Positions 31,734 to 64,000 of a stretch of DNA of 64,000 nucleotides are shown here, one piece after another. A program made the position numbers and the translations under genes. A model generated the notes under the pieces. The model did no database searches and was not told the origin of the DNA. It was given only the letters and a program-made list of their open reading frames with translations. This DNA comes from a virus: positions 12,916 to 76,915 of IMG/VR virus record IMGVR_UViG_3300009408_000002. One strand, 5' to 3'. Positions within the stretch are counted from its first letter, which is position 1. Each line of letters begins with the position of its first letter.

Positions 31734-34196
31734 ATGCTGACGCCCGACCACGTACTACCACTTCTCAAGGGCGTCGTGAAATCGGGAGAGGGCTGGAAGG
31801 CCCTCTGCCCGTTTCACGACGATGATAAGCCGTCGCTATCAATCAAGGAGGGCAGTGACGGCAGGGTTCTTCTTCACTGCTTCACTGGCTGTTCGTTCAC
31901 CCAGATTCTTAGCGCACTTGGCCTGAAGCTACCCAAGCAGGGGTCAGGCGGATTTCTTGCAACCTATGATTATGTAGACCAAGACGGAAAGCTTCTGTTC
32001 CAGGTCTGCAGGACCGTAGACAAGAAATTCTTTCAGCGCAGGAAAGATGAATACGGCGACATTATCTGGGGATTGGCAGCCGGCTTCTACCAGAAAAACA
32101 AGAGTGGCAACTGGGTTCGGATTTCCCCAAAAGAAGCCAAGGACAATCCTGCCGCCAAGGAGTTTCCTGAATGCGAAAAGCATCTCTATCGGCTCCCCGA
32201 CATTCTTCATGGCATAGCAGACCAGCAGACCGTCTTCCTGGTTGAAGGCGAAAAGGATGCTGATCGGCTGGCGTCTGCCGGCCTGATCGCAACATGCAAC
32301 CCTGGCGGCGCAACTGGCGGCAAGCCGGGCGAGAAATGGATTAGCAAATACACCAACGTCCTTGTGAAGGCCAAGGAAGTTATTGTCATCCCAGACAATG
32401 ATGATGTGGGCAAGGAGTTCGCCCTTAGGGTGTCTAGGATAATCTGCAAGGCGGGCGGCAACTCCAAGATCCTCTCTCTCCCGTCTCTTCCGCCGAAAGG
32501 TGACGTGTCCGATTGGCTGAAATCACCAGACAACTCTGTGACAGATCTGACAGAGCTTGCTGCATTCGCCTCAAAGCCTCCGCTGCCCAAGGTGAACTCC
32601 GCATCCGACATCCCCTTGCTGATGACAGAAATGATCGAGAAGGGAGACTGGCTTCTAGCAATGGAGCTTTGCTTCTCGACAGAGGCGATGGACGCGCTGG
32701 CATCTATCGAGATCCCCGAGCTTGCAGTTCTCCGGTCACAGATCAAGCAGCTTCTCCCAAAGAAGATCAACCTCAAGGATCTCAACGCGGCAATTTCTGT
32801 CGCTCGCAAGCGGATCAAGAAGAAGTCAGTTCAGGCAGACCTCGCCAGTGATCCGATCGGTGCATTCTTTGAAGCGACCGATAGCGGGGCGCAGCGGTTC
32901 GTTCCATCGAAACTGGGCAGATGGATTGCCCAATCGGGAGACTACCTGTTCGTTGCGGGCAAACTAAAGGTCTACAAGGATGGATACTATCAGGATGACG
33001 CAGGTCGCGTAGAGAAGCTGATCGTCGAGGCGCTTGGCGAGTCATGGGACATGTATCACTGTCGGCAAGTCATCACTTGGATGAAGCAGCAGTTCTTTAT
33101 TGACGCAAAATCTCTCCCTGTCAATCACGGGCTCCTCTGCCTCAAAAACGGCGTTTATGACATCAAGACGTCGAAGCTATACAAGCACAACAAGAAGTAT
33201 CGATTCTTGGTGCAGCACCCAATCAAATATGACCCCGATGCGAAGAGCGACTCTCTCGACAAGTTCGTGAACGATGTCTTCGAGTCGTCATGCATTCCTG
33301 TCATCTGGGAGTTCGCGGGCTATTGCCTCCTGCCTCAATCTGTCGAGATGAAGAAATTGATCATCCTGACGGGGCGGCGGAATAACGGAAAGTCAACGTG
33401 GCTGTCCTTCCTGGAAAAGTGTCTCGGCGAGGAGAACTGCTCACACGAATCCCTGCAGTCACTCGCCGAGGACAAATATTCTGTGGCCGAGCTATTCGGG
33501 AAGGTCGCCAATATCGTCAGCGATCTTGATGCCAGCTTGGTCCGCAGGACAGATGTGATCAAGCAGTTGACCGGCGGTGATACAGTACGTGGAGAGCGGA
33601 AGTATCAGGACCCGTTCTATTTCCAGAATCGCGCTCGAATGATCTTCAGCGCCAATGAGCTGCCGTCTATCTCGGACTACAACGAGGCATTCTTTGATCG
33701 CCTTCTGATCGTTCACTGTCCTAACATCTTTGAGCTAGGGAAGAACGCTGATCCGTCCCTGGCTGCAAAGCTCAACACCGAGCAGTGCAAGAGCGCATGG
33801 CTCAATGGGGCGCTCCAGGGGGCCGTCAGGCTGCTTCAGAATCGATGCTTCTCGCAGAGCCCGGACATCGAGGCGATGATCGGTGCCTACATGAGGGAAT
33901 GCGATTCCGTGACTGAGTTTATTCACGAATGCTGCATCCGTGAAGCAGAAGGCTTCACTCCCAAACGCGAGTTGTACAAGGCTTATACAGATTGGTGTCG
34001 CCCTAACAACAGACCGGCTGTCAGTTCGATACGATTCAGCAAGCGTGTTCAACAGCGACCCAACAACCTAACGACTACCCGCAGGTTCGTAGCGGCTGAC
34101 TCCAAACAAGTCTGGTCGTGGCTCGGAGTCAGGCTGTCGGGTAACATCACCCTTATTCGTCAAGAAGCACAAGAGCACTGGTATGACAAAATCTGA
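31734..34196 (+). CDS. Primase-helicase (CHC2 Zn finger, TOPRIM, D5/P4-type SF3 helicase)
   Basis: CPFHDD..C; VEGEKD; PDND; GDVSDW; Walker A 'GRRNNGKS'; 'LTGGD', 'FSANELP'. Confidence 0.93.
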   Translation: MLTPDHVLPLLKGVVKSGEGWKALCPFHDDDKPSLSIKEGSDGRVLLHCFTGCSFTQILSALGLKLPKQGSGGFLATYDYVDQDGKLLFQVCRTVDKKFFQRRKDEYGDIIWGLAAGFYQKNKSGNWVRISPKEAKDNPAAKEFPECEKHLYRLPDILHGIADQQTVFLVEGEKDADRLASAGLIATCNPGGATGGKPGEKWISKYTNVLVKAKEVIVIPDNDDVGKEFALRVSRIICKAGGNSKILSLPSLPPKGDVSDWLKSPDNSVTDLTELAAFASKPPLPKVNSASDIPLLMTEMIEKGDWLLAMELCFSTEAMDALASIEIPELAVLRSQIKQLLPKKINLKDLNAAISVARKRIKKKSVQADLASDPIGAFFEATDSGAQRFVPSKLGRWIAQSGDYLFVAGKLKVYKDGYYQDDAGRVEKLIVEALGESWDMYHCRQVITWMKQQFFIDAKSLPVNHGLLCLKNGVYDIKTSKLYKHNKKYRFLVQHPIKYDPDAKSDSLDKFVNDVFESSCIPVIWEFAGYCLLPQSVEMKKLIILTGRRNNGKSTWLSFLEKCLGEENCSHESLQSLAEDKYSVAELFGKVANIVSDLDASLVRRTDVIKQLTGGDTVRGERKYQDPFYFQNRARMIFSANELPSISDYNEAFFDRLLIVHCPNIFELGKNADPSLAAKLNTEQCKSAWLNGALQGAVRLLQNRCFSQSPDIEAMIGAYMRECDSVTEFIHECCIREAEGFTPKRELYKAYTDWCRPNNRPAVSSIRFSKRVQQRPNNLTTTRRFVAADSKQVWSWLGVRLSGNITLIRQEAQEHWYDKI

Positions 34197-34251
34197 CATC
34201 TTCTCAAGATCGCATGGCTCGACATGGGAGAAGCCCATCTTGTCTCATCGA

Positions 34252-34570
34252 CTATCCATGGATATCCAGGAAGAATCCAAGGTTTGCCTCGCAAAGTCAA
34301 AATGCAAGTGCTGCACGGGCGGCAGGTTGCGACCCGGAATCCAGAGAATCCAAACTATCCAGGGATACTCTTTAACTAGTATCTGTGTCAAACGAAAACG
34401 CCTCACAGAAAATGAATTCATCATCTCTTCTTTTTGTCGCGCACGCTTTAAGATGGTTAACCTGGATAGTTTGGATTCTCTGGATAGCAAACAGAACGGC
34501 GCCTCTACTATCAAAATTATGCACTTCCACTATCCAGGGTCTGGATATAAGGGGTCAAAAGTCTGGATAG
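34252..34570. repeat. Origin-like region: 25-bp perfect inverted repeat plus WATCCA iterons
   Basis: ATCCAGAGAATCCAAACTATCCAGG at 34339-34363 and its reverse complement at 34461-34485; further (A/T)ATCCA copies in both orientations; AT-rich. Confidence 0.7.
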
Positions 34571-34776
34571 TAAGGGCCAGATTTATAGATTGTAATCAAG
34601 ATGTAAGTAGTTTGTGGATTTCTTGTTATGCTTTGCACCAGCAATAACCGGCAGTTTTCTCTGACGCAGTGCATTACTAGACAATTATTCTAGATATCCC
34701 AGGGTCAGATAAGGCGGGTCACTTACAAAGTGACCCTTATTCAGGTACATGTAAGGATCGAACGGCAGGAACAGGA

Positions 34777-40780: not shown

Positions 40781-41160
40781 CGGATATTTCAGGGAAGAGG
40801 CCCCAGCACGATTGGCTATGGACAGCCGAGGTGGTCAGGTGGCTGGACGGAGACACTGTGGTCGTCTTGATAGATCGTGGCTTCAAGGACAGAAGCCTGC
40901 GTCACATCCGGCTGCTGGGGATTGATACTCCTGAGACCAGGAGCAAACTCAGGTGGGGCACCAGAGAGCTAGCAAAGCAGGCGACTGAGAGGGCAATCGC
41001 GCTGTCGCCAGTTGGCTCAGAGGTGATGGTGAGGAGTTACAAACCAGGCAAGTACGGCGGCAGATGGCTTGGTGAGATATGGCCGGCAGACAAATCAGAA
41101 GAAAGATCTGTCAACCAGATCATGCTCGATGAAGGGCTGGCCAGATCCTATCCCAAATGA
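40777..41160 (+). CDS. Thermonuclease (SNase-like)
   Basis: 'DGDT...IRLLGIDTPE...KYGGRWL...NQIMLDEGLA'. Confidence 0.9.
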   Translation: MTDISGKRPQHDWLWTAEVVRWLDGDTVVVLIDRGFKDRSLRHIRLLGIDTPETRSKLRWGTRELAKQATERAIALSPVGSEVMVRSYKPGKYGGRWLGEIWPADKSEERSVNQIMLDEGLARSYPK

Positions 41161-41498
41161 AACAGAACGAGGAGCTACTTCCTCGATCCTTCCAGTGGAT
41201 CATGAGGGACCCAAGTGGCAGGCCGATAGCCGAGCTACCAGCCTACCACCTGGGCATCAGGGGCCTTGTTGTTCATCGCTCAGTGACCGATCCCGTGACA
41301 TGGACGATTAGTCACTGGAGCGGGCTGCACATCGGCGGAATCTTCACCAGCCTAGAGCAAGCGTTTGATCTTGCAAGTGACTTCTTTCGCAACACGAAGG
41401 TCAACTGGACCCTTGGCCCAGCGGATCTTCGAAGTGTGGTTCAGGCCGAGATCGAATCTCGTGGATTCAAGCTGAGGTTCTCTAGTCGCAACAGCTAG
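41157..41498 (+). CDS. Hypothetical protein (last + strand gene)
   Basis: ATGA overlap. Confidence 0.6.
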   Translation: MKQNEELLPRSFQWIMRDPSGRPIAELPAYHLGIRGLVVHRSVTDPVTWTISHWSGLHIGGIFTSLEQAFDLASDFFRNTKVNWTLGPADLRSVVQAEIESRGFKLRFSSRNS

Positions 41499-41563
41499 CC
41501 CCGCGACGGCTCCCGCCGCCGCGCGCACCTGCACCTCAGCGCCACCTGCACCCCGCGCCGGGC

Positions 41564-41860
41564 TCACCAGGAACCCCGCGTGTCTGCGGCAGCGATCGCG
41601 AATTCTTCGCAGATGGCGCGAACCATGGGGTCGGGGCTGAGAGAATCAAACTCCACGATCAGGCCGTAGCTGATCGCGCTGGCCGGGATGCGATCCCATC
41701 CGCTCCCACTCCCACGCAGCGCCCACAATTCCCGCCCCACTCGCAGGGCCCGGCCCCGCATGTGACCGCGCCAGTCCAGGGGCGGGGGGCAGTAGCAATC
41801 CCCCAGCGGACCGTCCGGTGGCTCGAAACCACAATCCGGGCAGCGGTACCCCCCGATCAT
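41564..41860 (-). CDS. Hypothetical protein with CxxC motif
   Basis: ORF coupled to 41857-42057. Confidence 0.5.
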   Translation of the reverse strand: MIGGYRCPDCGFEPPDGPLGDCYCPPPLDWRGHMRGRALRVGRELWALRGSGSGWDRIPASAISYGLIVEFDSLSPDPMVRAICEEFAIAAADTRGSW

Positions 41861-52885: not shown

Positions 52886-53749
52886 TTACTTCTTCGGGAG
52901 AAGTCGCTCCTTGCTCAGGAAGTTTCTGACGGTGGCCCAACTGGCCCCGTAGGGGTCACCCTTGAAACCACAGACGCGAGCCATGCCAGCCACGACCGCC
53001 TTCCCGTAATCGTCGATCTTCCCGCCCTCACAAGCCTCGAAGACATCCTGGACCTGAACCTTGATGGCCTTCCGCCCCAGGTAGCTCAGTGGCTTGTGGC
53101 CGCCCTCCTCGTCCTTCACGTCCTTGATGGCCTTGTTGGGGGACTTGCCCCCCTTGACCTTCTGCACCACCTTGGACTGTCCTTCCTTCGACAGGCGGCT
53201 CGCCTCCACTGCCGCACTGTTGGGGATCTCCCCTCCCTTGCTCGCCTCTTTCAGATCCTCGCCGGCTTGCTTGGCGAACTGGCAGGCGTGGTTGATGAAC
53301 TGCATGGGTCGGCCCAGTTTCTTCGCGGCCTGCTTGCGAGTCATCTTGAACTGCTTCATCAGGGCGACAACTGCATCAGCGATCTCTGCCTCGGTCAGGT
53401 CCTCTCGGTTGAGATTCTCCTGGAGGTTGACGAGGTGCAGTTCGTCATCACTCGCGTTGTCCAGGTAGGACACGATAACCATGCTCTGAAAGGTGGGCCG
53501 CTTCTTGCGGATCTCAGAGATTGCCGCATAGCGGCGAAAGCCGCTGACCAGGTTGTACTTGATGCTTGCCCCCCGCCCCGTACGATTTACCACAAGTGGT
53601 GGCAACGGTGCTCCGGCCTTGTAATCGTGGATCAGGACCGACAGGTCGCCGAGGTCCTTGCGACAGTTGAAGTCTTCGGGAACTAGGACGCTCTCGAATG
53701 GGATGCTAACCATCTGCTGGCCAGCGGTCTTCAGCGTTGCGGTTGCCAT
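52886..53749 (-). CDS. ParB-like protein
   Basis: 'FNCR', 'PLVV', 'SGFRRYAA', 'ENLNREDL', HTH. Confidence 0.88.
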   Translation of the reverse strand: MATATLKTAGQQMVSIPFESVLVPEDFNCRKDLGDLSVLIHDYKAGAPLPPLVVNRTGRGASIKYNLVSGFRRYAAISEIRKKRPTFQSMVIVSYLDNASDDELHLVNLQENLNREDLTEAEIADAVVALMKQFKMTRKQAAKKLGRPMQFINHACQFAKQAGEDLKEASKGGEIPNSAAVEASRLSKEGQSKVVQKVKGGKSPNKAIKDVKDEEGGHKPLSYLGRKAIKVQVQDVFEACEGGKIDDYGKAVVAGMARVCGFKGDPYGASWATVRNFLSKERLLPKK

Positions 53750-59501: not shown

Positions 59502-59772
59502 GATGCCTCCATGATCATCGTCTCTGTCGCGGCATCCCGCCCCCCGTATCCCCCGCACAGATCGCAAGCTGGGTTATCACAACACGGGATCAACGATCCG
59601 CCGCTCACTGCTTCGTGACGCTTGAGGTATGTCTTGACTGCGCCGATGCCGCGAAGGATTGCATACTTCGGGAACTTCACTTCATACAGGCCGTGCTCGA
59701 TCTGATGAACACGCCCCACACCGTCCCGACATCTAAACCAGAAACCGAAACCCCCCGTACCCCGCCCCCCAC

Positions 59773-60018
59773 TCATCGTTCACTCCGGTGGATGAAGGAG
59801 GTCCTGGACGACTCGGGGTCAGTGTTGCGCACCAGGCGTCGCTGATAGTCGAGCCGATCAATCTCGTACTCCTGATTCTCCTTGTTGCGCCGACTCGCCC
59901 GCTTCTGGAACTCGTTACGGCTGTGCTCCTGGCGCCGCTTCTTGCGACGGTACAGTTTGACTTCGGCGTTGTGCTGGATTCGAAGATACGCGATCTGCTG
60001 CTTGGTGAGATACTTCAT
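59773..60018 (-). CDS. Basic hypothetical protein
   Basis: SD GGAAGG; ORF. Confidence 0.55.
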   Translation of the reverse strand: MKYLTKQQIAYLRIQHNAEVKLYRRKKRRQEHSRNEFQKRASRRNKENQEYEIDRLDYQRRLVRNTDPESSRTSFIHRSER

Positions 60019-60092
60019 TGGACCTTCCCCTTGAAGGTGGTGATTACCGCCGGATACAAGCCCCCGGCGTAGGCTGCTGATTGATTGATTTG

Positions 60093-60311
60093 CTAGATGA
60101 TCTCCCCGTTCTTGCGAGCCTTTCTGACCTGCTTCTCCAGCTTCATGACCTTGCGATACTGCTCGTTGATGGCGCTATCAAGAGCCGACAACTCGCCCCA
60201 GTTCTTTGTGGAAGTGTGGACATAGGAATACGTCCGGCATAGCGAAGCCAGCCGATCCTTGCCCATACTGAGTTCACGAGATATGTCACGGGTCGGGAGT
60301 GTACGTGCCAT
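60093..60311 (-). CDS. Hypothetical protein
   Basis: SD GGAGG; ORF. Confidence 0.6.
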   Translation of the reverse strand: MARTLPTRDISRELSMGKDRLASLCRTYSYVHTSTKNWGELSALDSAINEQYRKVMKLEKQVRKARKNGEII

Positions 60312-60346
60312 AGTAGTTTAGCCTCCACAGGAAGATTGATTGATAA

Positions 60347-60419
60347 TCGGCCCCCTGGGAATCGAACCCAGCTATTACCGCTTATGAGGCGGCTGCTATC
60401 ACCAGATTGCTAGAGGCCG
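60347..60419 (-). tRNA. tRNA with CAT anticodon (probably tRNA-Ile2 rather than Met); CCA not encoded
   Basis: Cloverleaf: CGGCCTC/GGGGCCG-A acceptor, GCCGC-CTCATAA-GCGGT anticodon arm, CTGGG-TTCGATT-CCCAG T arm. Confidence 0.9.
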
Positions 60420-60424
60420 TGCTG

Positions 60425-60920
60425 CGCATCCAACTTCTTGAAAAGGACAGGTGAAACTTATGTCAGTTGAGTCTTGCGAATTGTCTTGGCCCACGTTGCA
60501 ATAACGTCAAGCCCTGTATGCAAGACTCACTTACCGTTCAGCCCCCGAACATCGTTATTTGCACCATGGATACCAGCCTCCGAAGGCGGAACCAATAGGT
60601 GCCATTTATGTGGGACCAATGAAAGGCAAGCCTGAACCTGTCACGGTACTCCAATCACGGCGGGAGAGTGTTGCCTTGATATACTCAAGACGCGCCGTCT
60701 GAACCATAGGGCCAGCCCCCATCATTGGACCAGTTACTAAGCGCTCAACACCAATAGCGTTGACTCACCGGCTTACTGATAAGTTAGGTAAACCTATCGC
60801 CCTGATTCTTTAGATTTATGCACGGCACAATATGCCAAGCTATTAGCCTGGCGCAGCCATGTAAATCAATGACAAGAGCTGACTGAGCCACCGTTGACTC
60901 ACTGACCGAGCTTTACATAT
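60425..60920 (-). ncRNA. Candidate large structured non-coding RNA
   Basis: No ORF of 60 aa or more in any frame; many nested helices; directly upstream of the tRNA; strand inferred. Confidence 0.5.
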
Positions 60921-61384
60921 CGCCATTGCTCAAGCCTTACTGCCAGGTTGCCATATTAGGTATGACCGCCGTACTAGGTGAGTTTCGGATCACCGTTCCA
61001 GCCAGCTTACTACTACCACCGGCCCAGCCGGCAGCCAGCCGCCTCAGCGCAACCGTCGTGCCGAACCCGGCAGATTCTTTTCAAGTCCAGCGCCAGCCTC
61101 GACTTGCGGAAGATCGGCCAGTCCGGCATGCCGCTTGCTAGGTGCAGCAGGAATGCTGCGATTTACCGGTTTTGGCGCAGAATTTCCGCTGCACCCCGGT
61201 AATCGACCGCCCGCTGGCGCGCGAAGCTGCGCTGGCTTGACTGCAACCACAATCTGCATATATGGTGTAAGTTATTGACACATTGACGCAGATCCCCGCC
61301 CCCCTCCTCCAGAATAATGCCATATACAGAGAAATATATTTCAGCCCAACCGAAGTAGTTAGTAGTTGCCTCGCGCAGCGAAAT

Positions 61385-61608
61385 CCCCCGCCCCATCCAC
61401 GCCCTAAGTTGGCTTTATATAGGAATCTAGCTAAAATGGCCTGATTACGCAGTTGCAGTCAAGCCTGACGCCAGTCATAGCGAACGCCGCCCCACCCCCC
61501 GCCCCTAATTCGTTCTATATAGGAATTTTCATAACGAGCCGTGATTTTTGTAGTCAAGCCTGACGCCAGTCATGCCAAACGCCGCCCCCCCCCCGCCCCC
61601 CCGCCCCT
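61385..61608. repeat. Imperfect ~95-100 bp tandem repeat with exact 22-bp core
   Basis: AGTCAAGCCTGACGCCAGTCAT at 61457-61478 and 61552-61573; TATATAGGAAT twice; C-rich tracts. Confidence 0.85.
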
Positions 61609-61703
61609 GTATCGGTTTTCTTAACGCGACGCATATATGTGCATATACGCGCGCGCGCGTGAAAACAGGCGCGAATGGACGCCAGGTATGAGCATGCGCA
61701 AAA

Positions 61704-61778
61704 GCTGGCGCCCACTTCGCGCGCCCGCATTGCTGGCGCCCACTTCGCGCACGCGCATTGCTGGCGCCCACTTCGCGC
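61704..61778. repeat. Three direct repeats, 28-bp period
   Basis: GCTGGCGCCCACTTCGCGC at 61704, 61732, 61760. Confidence 0.9.
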
Positions 61779-61847
61779 ACGCGACAACGGGCGCGCGAAA
61801 CCTGATAGCGCGCGGAAGCAAACGGCATGCCAGGTTCCGGAATGGGC

Positions 61848-61881
61848 AAAAAAAAAGCGTACACTCGGGAGTGTACGCTTT
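61848..61881 (-). terminator. Intrinsic terminator
   Basis: Stem GCGTACACT/AGTGTACGC followed by T9 on - strand just after the stop at 61894. Confidence 0.85.
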
Positions 61882-61893
61882 CGGTAAGGGCGG

Positions 61894-62292
61894 TTACTTG
61901 CTGTTGCTGGTCTTCGCCTTACGGGCCTTGCCCTTGCCTTCCTTTTCCTGCCGACGGCGGCGGCGGTACAGTTCCGCGAGAATGGGGTCTTCGGTGGCGG
62001 CCTTGCCCTTGCCCTTGCCCTTGCCCTTGGCTTCAGCGGCGGCGGGATTCGGAAGGAACACCTTGAGTTTCCATCCGGAGCCCTTAACAACCACCTTACC
62101 ATCGGCTTCCAGTTCCCTTACCATTTCTTCAGCCTGGGAGCGCCGTTCGGCAACACTTTCCGCAACCAGGAAACCGCACAATTTGTTGAGAAAGCAACCC
62201 TTCCACGGGCTTTTGACCTCGCCGGCAAGGTATGCGGCATTCGACATGCTCTCGCAAATCCCGATGTACTCCACTACCAAATCGAACAACAT
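61894..62292 (-). CDS. Small protein with Lys/Arg-rich tail (GK repeats)
   Basis: SD AGGAG before ATG 62292; (CCCTTG)n encoding GKGKGKGK; followed by terminator. Confidence 0.65.
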   Translation of the reverse strand: MLFDLVVEYIGICESMSNAAYLAGEVKSPWKGCFLNKLCGFLVAESVAERRSQAEEMVRELEADGKVVVKGSGWKLKVFLPNPAAAEAKGKGKGKGKAATEDPILAELYRRRRRQEKEGKGKARKAKTSNSK

Positions 62293-62893
62293 AGCGCTAT
62301 CTCCTATGTCACCTAAGATTGATAGATTGCACACAACGCACGGCGACAATGCGCTTTTGTGCACTTGGTACGGTTGATTCAATTGTCAAAAAACGGGGGT
62401 TTATGTTACTGCTAGAAGGTTTTGCCCTACTAGCAGTTATGGTGCTCACTCCCAGGAATTCGGCATGGGGATCCCCATCCGGGCGCTCACCGGATTGCGG
62501 TATAGCTGTCCCAGCACTGCCGCCTCGACGGCGCGCTTAGACCTCAGGACCCGGACCATTCCGCAATGGACGCCCATTTCATCATGGGCGGAAAGGATCA
62601 GTGTTGATGGCATTTCGGGTACAGAAATGATCCGCTCCAGCCTGTAAATCTTCATTCTTCTCCTCCAAGCGATTGTGAAAGATCCGTCACACACGTTCCC
62701 TGCTGCCACCGGCGGGTAGTCAACCCGCCGATAGCGCTTAATTCTTGCTAGCGCCAATACTTCCTCACGAGCATTTTCTGCCTCTCGCGGATGCGCCTAG
62801 CTAGCATCGGATTGCCGGATTCCTGTTGCCAAACCAGCCTACGCCATGACAGGGTTAGCGCCGATAGCGCTTTCTCTATCCGCTGTTGCTTGT

Positions 62894-63112: not shown

Positions 63113-64000
63113 CGGTTCCCCTAGTTGTAAAAGAGTTTTTCTGACCGGGCCTTTCCCGGTCCCTTCCCTTCGATGCTACTGGCAAGCCCTACTGCATGCC
63201 ATGTGCCAAGCCCGGAAAATTCCGGTCAGATTCAGCAGGTACCAGCAACATAAACCCTCGACCGGCAAGAGCTTACGTAAAAATCATGAAATCCTGTATT
63301 CCAATTTCTGTATGGTCAAAGTAAGGATAATAACAATGAAAGGTCTAGCGTGAGTGTTCACGTTCGTGGACACTCAGTGTCCTAGTTCGGGGAATGGCGA
63401 TATAAACCATTGCTAGCACTAGACTTATGGGCATGCCTTGTGTCCACAAAAGCGGACACGTCTATCCAATTGACATAAACCCTTGCTACACATATACTTG
63501 CATCTTAGATATGAGAATCCCATTGTTAGGCATTGCGCGTTGCAAACGGTGTGCCAGCCAGGCCAGTCTCGGCATGAAATTCAGAAGAAAAACTAACATA
63601 TCTTTCATTGCACATAACGCACAGAATACGTTAGTTGCTATGTGGCGTATTCTGAAATATCTTTCTGGCATGGCGTTTGCTTGCGGCAAATCCTGGCAAG
63701 CCGTTTGCAGGAGGTAACGAAATGTTACTATGCGAAATGACGCAATATGACACATTGCGTTATCAATCGGATGTGACGCAATGTGTCACCTTGCAAGCGG
63801 CATGCCAAACCCTGGATGCTGAAAGATCTTTCAGCATCTTTTTTTGTAAGGCATGCTGTAAGGCGATCAGCAAATCCTGGCAAGGATATGTAAGGAAAGA
63901 CCTAATCGACGCAACACGTTGTCTGGTAAGGGTTTACATCAAATCATAGTTCCATGGTTTCATTCAAGGGTAAGAGTGATTTAAGGTATGAGGTAAGGGG

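Follow-up and report, generated by a model that had tools for sequence, protein, structure and literature searches.

An ordinary transcribed leader is the most likely identity of the block at 60425-60920, which is at best a candidate RNA. In the form that we tentatively prefer, it would be the portion of a long 5' leader that lies farthest from the promoter, on a leftward transcript that begins with tRNA-Met and continues into early genes. This leader would be 0.9-1.4 kb long, and the transcript would carry tRNA-Met and a ~19-kb array of early and replication genes. Transcription of the upstream gene would stop at a terminator at 61853-61882, restart at a promoter-like site in a repeat-rich hub (60950-61850) and then pass through the block at 60425-60920, and RNase P would remove the leader by cleaving at the 5' end of the tRNA. 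Stable local hairpin domains of the leader might influence processing, stability or read-through. The block would then not be a free-standing RNA gene. We infer its transcription, its start site and its release by RNase P.

Two other readings compete with a leader. The next in rank, which we consider unlikely, is that the block acts at the DNA level as a control element of the leftward operon (operators, binding sites), or is a spacer or the remnant of a decayed gene, with incidental hairpins. Less probable still is an independent structured ncRNA of ~0.5 kb, a member of an undescribed orphan class that is encoded on the minus strand, co-transcribed with tRNA-Met, cut from it and active in trans, a mode of action proposed for large phage RNAs such as ROOL and GOLLD. 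Most doubtful of all is the proposition that the block represents, as its first known example, a new class of large (~0.5 kb) structured phage RNAs, trans-acting and processed from tRNA-Met, in an orphan phage lineage of hydrothermal-vent and microbial-mat communities. If the block were a free-standing RNA, an orphan lineage would join the few large phage RNAs that neighbor tRNA genes.

Gene layout and the non-coding gap

The window, i.e., the whole 64,000-nt stretch analyzed here, comprises bases 12916-76915 of the 76.9-kb IMG/VR virus contig IMGVR_UViG_3300009408_000002. This source contig is classed as linear and ~58% complete, and its end is the right end of the window. Plus-strand genes fill 1-41500 and minus-strand genes run from ~63112 down to 41560. 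Every gene from 63112 to ~41560 lies on the minus strand together with tRNA-Met, which argues for a common leftward transcript with a leader. The tRNA-Met (anticodon CAT) is located at 60347-60419 on the minus strand (ARAGORN; Rfam RF00005, 46.3 bits), as expected from the first-pass annotation, which had placed the block next to a tRNA. It is of the elongator type, with C1-G72 paired and an anticodon stem that by eye does not contain the initiator GGG/CCC.

The first gene after the tRNA (60093-60311, minus strand, GGAGG before the ATG) encodes a 72-aa orphan protein that appears helix-turn-helix-like by eye, and heads the minus-strand gene array extending to ~41560. Upstream of the gap lies the gene of a 162-aa protein (61894-62382, minus strand), which is ended by the terminator at 61853-61882. 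Pfam and PHROG searches of these two flanking proteins matched no family, and among 5.8 billion proteins each matches itself only. For the primase-helicase, the closest relatives in IMG/VR are five proteins with 23-26% identity. The collections searched contain no relatives of this orphan phage lineage. On the minus strand, the motif ATCAATCAATC (ATCTATCAATC in one copy) occurs at 60079-60089, 60334-60344, and 62317-62327, in each case ~20-70 nt before the start codon of one of three consecutive genes of this strand that surround the tRNA; its count is within chance for the whole window and its placement is regular.

The block had been described as free of open reading frames. This is borne out, and the gap is about three times longer than described, extending from 60420 to ~61890. 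There is no ORF of at least 80 aa between 60311 and 61529, and the listed ORFs further right, up to 61890, cross tandem repeats and homopolymer tracts. All three stop codons are present in all six frames of 60420-61900, so that reassigning any one of them would leave every frame closed. Translated in six frames with X in place of stops, the gap matched no Pfam family (E up to 1). On these two results, a decayed gene and coding in a different genetic code were both rejected.

The strong intrinsic terminator that closes the 162-aa gene (61853-61882, minus strand) has a 13-bp stem and, after it, nine consecutive T. As it acts on the strand of the tRNA operon, this operon needs a promoter between the terminator and 60420, and the restart required by a leader becomes necessary. 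A promoter and terminator scan of the minus strand of 60420-60920 found neither a sigma70-type site nor a terminator. As a promoter of the block's own, only poor matches were seen by eye and these were rejected: TAATAT at 60952-60957 has no -35, and TGGCAG...TTGA at 60930-60946 is wrongly spaced. All promoter-like motifs on the minus strand, which are consensus matches only, lie to the right of the block, and the sole terminator between them and the tRNA is a weak terminator-like site at 61668-61683. Both the position of these motifs, with none seen inside 60420-60920, and the nearly free path to the tRNA suggest a leader. Against an independent RNA counts that neither a promoter nor a terminator of its own was found.

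The rest of the gap (60921-61852) is repeat-rich and presumably regulatory, as judged by repeats, promoter scan and motif searches. A motif search placed a sigma54-like motif on the plus strand (61124-61139), and a second one, TGGCATGCCGTTTGCT (TGGCA...TTGC), has the spacing of a sigma54 promoter on the minus strand (61817-61832). The promoter scan found a sigma70-like site at 61237-61266 on the plus strand. Repeat and motif searches found two 53-nt units (61453-61505 and 61548-61600) with G-tracts and with GGCTTGACT, which is promoter-like on the minus strand at 61453-61465 and 61548-61560; the -10 hexamers of these TTGACT units are poor.

Several stretches of this region fold strongly, with z-scores of -3.5 to -4.6 at 61050-61200 and 61550-61800. 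Directly after the plus-strand sigma54-like motif, a hairpin with the arms GGTGCAGC/GCTGCACC and inner pairs was identified by eye (~61141-61195), and 150-nt windows over it have a z of -3.5 on the plus and -4.35 on the minus strand. Three 28-nt tandem repeats (61704-61787), which the weak terminator-like site follows, are located just downstream of the minus-strand sigma54-like motif. The stretch around them (61660-61806, minus strand) forms long hairpins with z = -5.0 and might be either a small RNA or an array of the iteron or parS type; a ParB-like gene is found at 52886-53749. On the minus strand of 61293-61610, four G-rich tracts (runs of at least 4 G) recur every ~90-110 nt. A TATATA-like motif comes before every tract, and the unit ATGACTGGCGTCAGGCTTGACT before two of them. 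The tracts might be promoter modules or G-quadruplex-prone repeats, and assemblies of public runs break at 61293-61610.

TGGCA-N6-TTGC motifs occur six times, all in the last 3 kb (61124-61139, 61817-61832, 63541-63556, 63666-63681, 63694-63709, and 63792-63807), a count that no shuffle reaches. They come as inverted pairs: the copies at 61124 and 61817 form a 15-nt inverted repeat, 677 nt apart, and the four at 63.5-63.8 kb are arms of long helices in the fold of 63505-63850. The motifs may be helix arms or protein sites, instead of or besides promoters. This weakens the case for a leader, as its promoter assignments follow from consensus matches with poor -10s and from sigma54-like motifs that are perhaps inverted-repeat arms. 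Moreover, a promoter of a type outside the models of the scan could sit within the block or immediately ahead of the tRNA. For a phage with so dense a gene content, a leader of ~1 kb is also long; that 0.5 kb of unique non-coding sequence has been kept points to more than passive spacing.

Folding of the block

Ten helices had been listed in the block and all are found where they were placed. As elements of a nested structure they fare less well: CCAATGA/TCATTGG, ACGGCG/CGCCGT, and TAGGT/ACCTA are unused in the best fold of the minus strand, and most helices have only 5-7 bp, which is what any 500 nt offers. The single 10-bp stem of the block is not special, since the 64 kb contain 18 perfect inverted repeats of at least 10 bp whose loops do not exceed 100 nt. 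The best single-sequence fold of the block shows one multi-branch domain, and no GNRA-type loops were seen in it by eye.

Comparison with shuffled sequences, a check proposed in the first-pass annotation, gave a signal for one strand only. None of 100 dinucleotide shuffles folds as well as the minus strand of 60425-60920 (z = -3.52), whereas the plus strand reaches only z = -0.98. That the excess is confined to the minus strand is in line with a leader. For calibration, 424 natural 496-nt windows of the same genome were folded and the energy was regressed on base composition. On this scale, the block is at -1.86 sd on the minus strand (rank 14 of 424) and at -0.62 sd on the plus strand, and 300-nt windows over the block rank between 41 and 238 of 850 on the minus strand. 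The drop from z -3.5 against shuffles to -1.9 sd after calibration on the same genome illustrates the limits of single-sequence folding.

A scan with 150-nt windows (60 shuffles per window) gave z-scores of -0.55 to -2.0 throughout on the minus strand and of -1.65 to +0.44 on the plus strand for starts at 60400-60800, and mostly of 0 to +2 in the coding flanks. The fold signal spans ~60450-60950 and ends where the G+C content climbs from 0.49 to 0.58-0.63. The G+C content of the block is lower than that of its surroundings and than the genome level. Furthermore, its minus strand is rich in G+U while the coding flanks are purine-rich, a bias that fits a feature at the RNA rather than the DNA level. 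The minus-strand-specific excess of structure is real but modest, and comparable to the z-score of -2.5 of the tRNA's own sequence folded singly. Other stretches of the window show a clearly stronger one. Thus, of the original observation, the ORF-free block, the helix coordinates and the adjacent tRNA stand, and folding beyond chance is only modest.

These values bear differently on the three readings. A score of -1.9 sd relative to the genome, weaker than that of the tandem-repeat stretch and of the element at 63.5 kb, is what an ordinary structured leader would have. For an element that acts as DNA, an unremarkable genome-calibrated score is likewise expected. For an independent RNA, the shuffle z-score with 0 of 100 shuffles as good is favorable, as is the coincidence of the bounds of the signal (~60450-60950) with the change in composition at 60920. 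However, a mere -1.9 sd relative to natural windows of the genome, a G+C content under the genome level and the lack of GNRA-type loops in the predicted fold argue against it.

Four local domains are predicted on the minus strand. Domain A (60468-60529) is a 10-bp stem enclosing a hairpin of 5+5 bp, with pair probabilities of ~0.9. All of its pairs are Watson-Crick and it therefore folds equally on both strands (z -3.1 on the minus vs. -3.7 on the plus strand). Domain B (60561-60602) combines a GCACC/GGUGC stem with an inner GCCU-UCGG-AGGC hairpin (pair probabilities 0.7-0.99) and is also symmetric on the two strands (z -2.05 on the minus vs. -2.76 on the plus strand). Domain C (60653-60807) is a predicted multi-branch structure of four hairpins (pair probabilities 0.55-0.99) and is strand-specific, with z -3.09 on the minus vs. 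-0.49 on the plus strand. The same holds for domain D (60813-60867), a long irregular hairpin with an 8-bp tip (pair probabilities 0.35-0.92; z -3.61 on the minus vs. -1.38 on the plus strand). Hence, the strand-specific signal is confined to 60653-60807 and 60813-60867. All domain z-scores are flattered because the domain bounds were picked after folding. The equal folding of domains A and B on both strands is compatible with DNA sites; domains C and D, in contrast, are unlike a DNA site, and two strand-specific domains with high pair probabilities would suit an independent RNA.

Relatives, known RNA families and strain variants

The Rfam check proposed for the block assigned it to no family, in agreement with the earlier inability to place it. 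Rfam 15 (4227 models) was run at gathering thresholds on the whole window, where the tRNA alone passes, and again with permissive filters (E up to 10) for both strands of 59900-62000, where ROOL (RF03087) and GOLLD (RF01998) remain unmatched and nothing else is credible. The best sub-threshold match in the block is Chloroflexus-1 (16.8 bits, E = 0.22; threshold 181.5). The remainder of the contig is likewise without an Rfam match. A known RNA family is ruled out by Rfam at thresholds and at E up to 10.

Sequence searches returned no homologue of the block either. A blastn search of 50,697 phage records matched 56 nt of the tRNA and nothing else. No homologue was found in a plasmid collection, in IMG/VR by way of the flanking proteins and the AAA_33 kinase, or in the whole records of the five primase-helicase relatives (23-26% identity), which contain nothing resembling the block. 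Exact-word searches of IMG/VR with three of the hairpins found nothing. With the anticodon and T arms of the tRNA as anchors, IMG/VR and GTDB genomes yielded seven loci (five viral contigs and two Firmicutes MAGs), which are similar in the tRNA alone. The lack of a homologue in the collections searched, and hence of any covarying pair, argues against an independent RNA, as do the unmatched models of ROOL, GOLLD and all other Rfam families at E up to 10.

The first-pass annotation had stated that ROOL and GOLLD occur beside tRNAs. This agrees with the literature: both are often found near tRNAs and in phages or prophages, and ROOL RNA has a mean length of 581 nt (Weinberg et al. 2017, PMC5737381). 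The block resembles ROOL in its size class (~500 nt), in its phage origin and in the tRNA gene that adjoins it on the same strand, which makes co-transcription of block and tRNA plausible. It differs in that the ROOL covariance model is unmatched at E up to 10 and in that its folding signal is modest. GOLLD, of ~800 nt, would be longer than the block. As a large non-coding element of phages and prophages that is often near tRNAs, it offers a similar parallel, but its Rfam model is likewise unmatched at E up to 10. The genomic context of ROOL and GOLLD is thus present, with a virus contig and tRNA-Met directly downstream on the same strand; context alone does not establish membership. As the covariance models are unmatched, the block is not a member of either family, and the resemblance is limited to the size class and the tRNA and phage context.

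Long structured 5' leaders are also known from processive antitermination, as in lambda nut, HK022 put and the boxB-boxA-boxC of rrn operons. Similar to these, the block separates promoter-like sites from the first gene in a long operon headed by a stable RNA, and it contains local hairpins. A put-like double hairpin, however, is not recognizable in it. One GCUCUU core (60874-60879, minus strand) is located just after a hairpin and resembles boxA. At six bases plus context it is too short for a boxA-like antitermination signal and was rejected; having been found post hoc, it does not count as evidence.

Near-identical DNA was found in three DNA runs of two studies, one from a hydrothermal-vent and two from microbial-mat metagenomes, for the region 59700-62500; none of the listed runs that contain the stretch is an RNA run. 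One mat contig covers 59700-61294 with six differences, three in two protein genes, one in the tRNA and two in the block. The SNP at 60413 changes C7-G66 of the tRNA to U7-G66 (position mapped by eye), so that the pair 7-66 is kept. In the block, the SNP at 60515 lies in an internal loop of domain A. The one at 60732 (U to C on the minus strand) turns a predicted U-A pair of domain C into C-A and breaks it, which speaks against an independent structured RNA. The placement of the two SNPs is as expected by chance. With 2 in 496, the SNP density of the block equals that of the coding flank (3 in ~610), consistent with an element that acts as DNA or a spacer. In one metatranscriptome of the same mat sample, of 15 million letters, nothing aligned to the stretch, an outcome that weighs neither for nor against transcription. 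At 62041-62500, over the region of the 162-aa gene, mat variant contigs differ by 4-11% and are too short to extend to the block, while 59700-61294 differs by only 0.4%; this suggests that mosaic relatives of the phage may be present in those mats.

Alternatives to a leader and stronger fold outliers

For a control element at the DNA level, one argument is continuity: the block passes without a break into the 0.9-kb repeat region with its tandem 28-mers, inverted 15-mers and TTGACT units. Within the block itself, by contrast, only short motifs occur as repeats. The motif GTGAGTCAACG is present twice, 134 nt apart, with no other exact copy in the window, as a pair of protein sites might be. The pair is not beyond chance, however, as 11 of 100 shuffles reach three matches. 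A search of JGI metagenomes for the spaced GTGAGTCAACG pair matched 30 loci or contigs, none of them otherwise similar. A decayed protein gene left no trace in the six-frame Pfam search. Finally, a likelier replication origin lies elsewhere, at 34137-34632, the strongest 496-nt fold outlier on both strands (-4.1 and -4.0 sd).

For an independent ncRNA, the genomic setting is favorable. The phage genome is dense, yet a unique, ORF-free block of 496 nt immediately precedes a tRNA that is encoded on the same strand, and the frequent location of ROOL and GOLLD near tRNAs and in prophages (PMC5737381) makes this setting suggestive.

Far stronger candidates than the block are present in the same window, namely the repeat hub at 61050-61850 and the element at 63505-63850. 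The latter (346 nt, plus strand) has a fold z-score of -8.3 and is the most extreme outlier among 300-nt windows. It is preceded by a near-consensus sigma70 promoter (63470-63498, plus strand; TTGACA-17-TATACT) and contains a strong intrinsic terminator with an 11-bp stem and a T-run (63814-63839, plus strand). No match was found in Rfam or the phage database. Judged by its predicted fold, 63505-63850 would be a much stronger ncRNA candidate than 60425-60920. A 75-aa frame, which has a good AGGAGG site, opens at 63723 and crosses its terminator, so that the element may be coding. A further minus-strand outlier (41081-41576, -3.5 sd) coincides with the junction of the convergent gene blocks.
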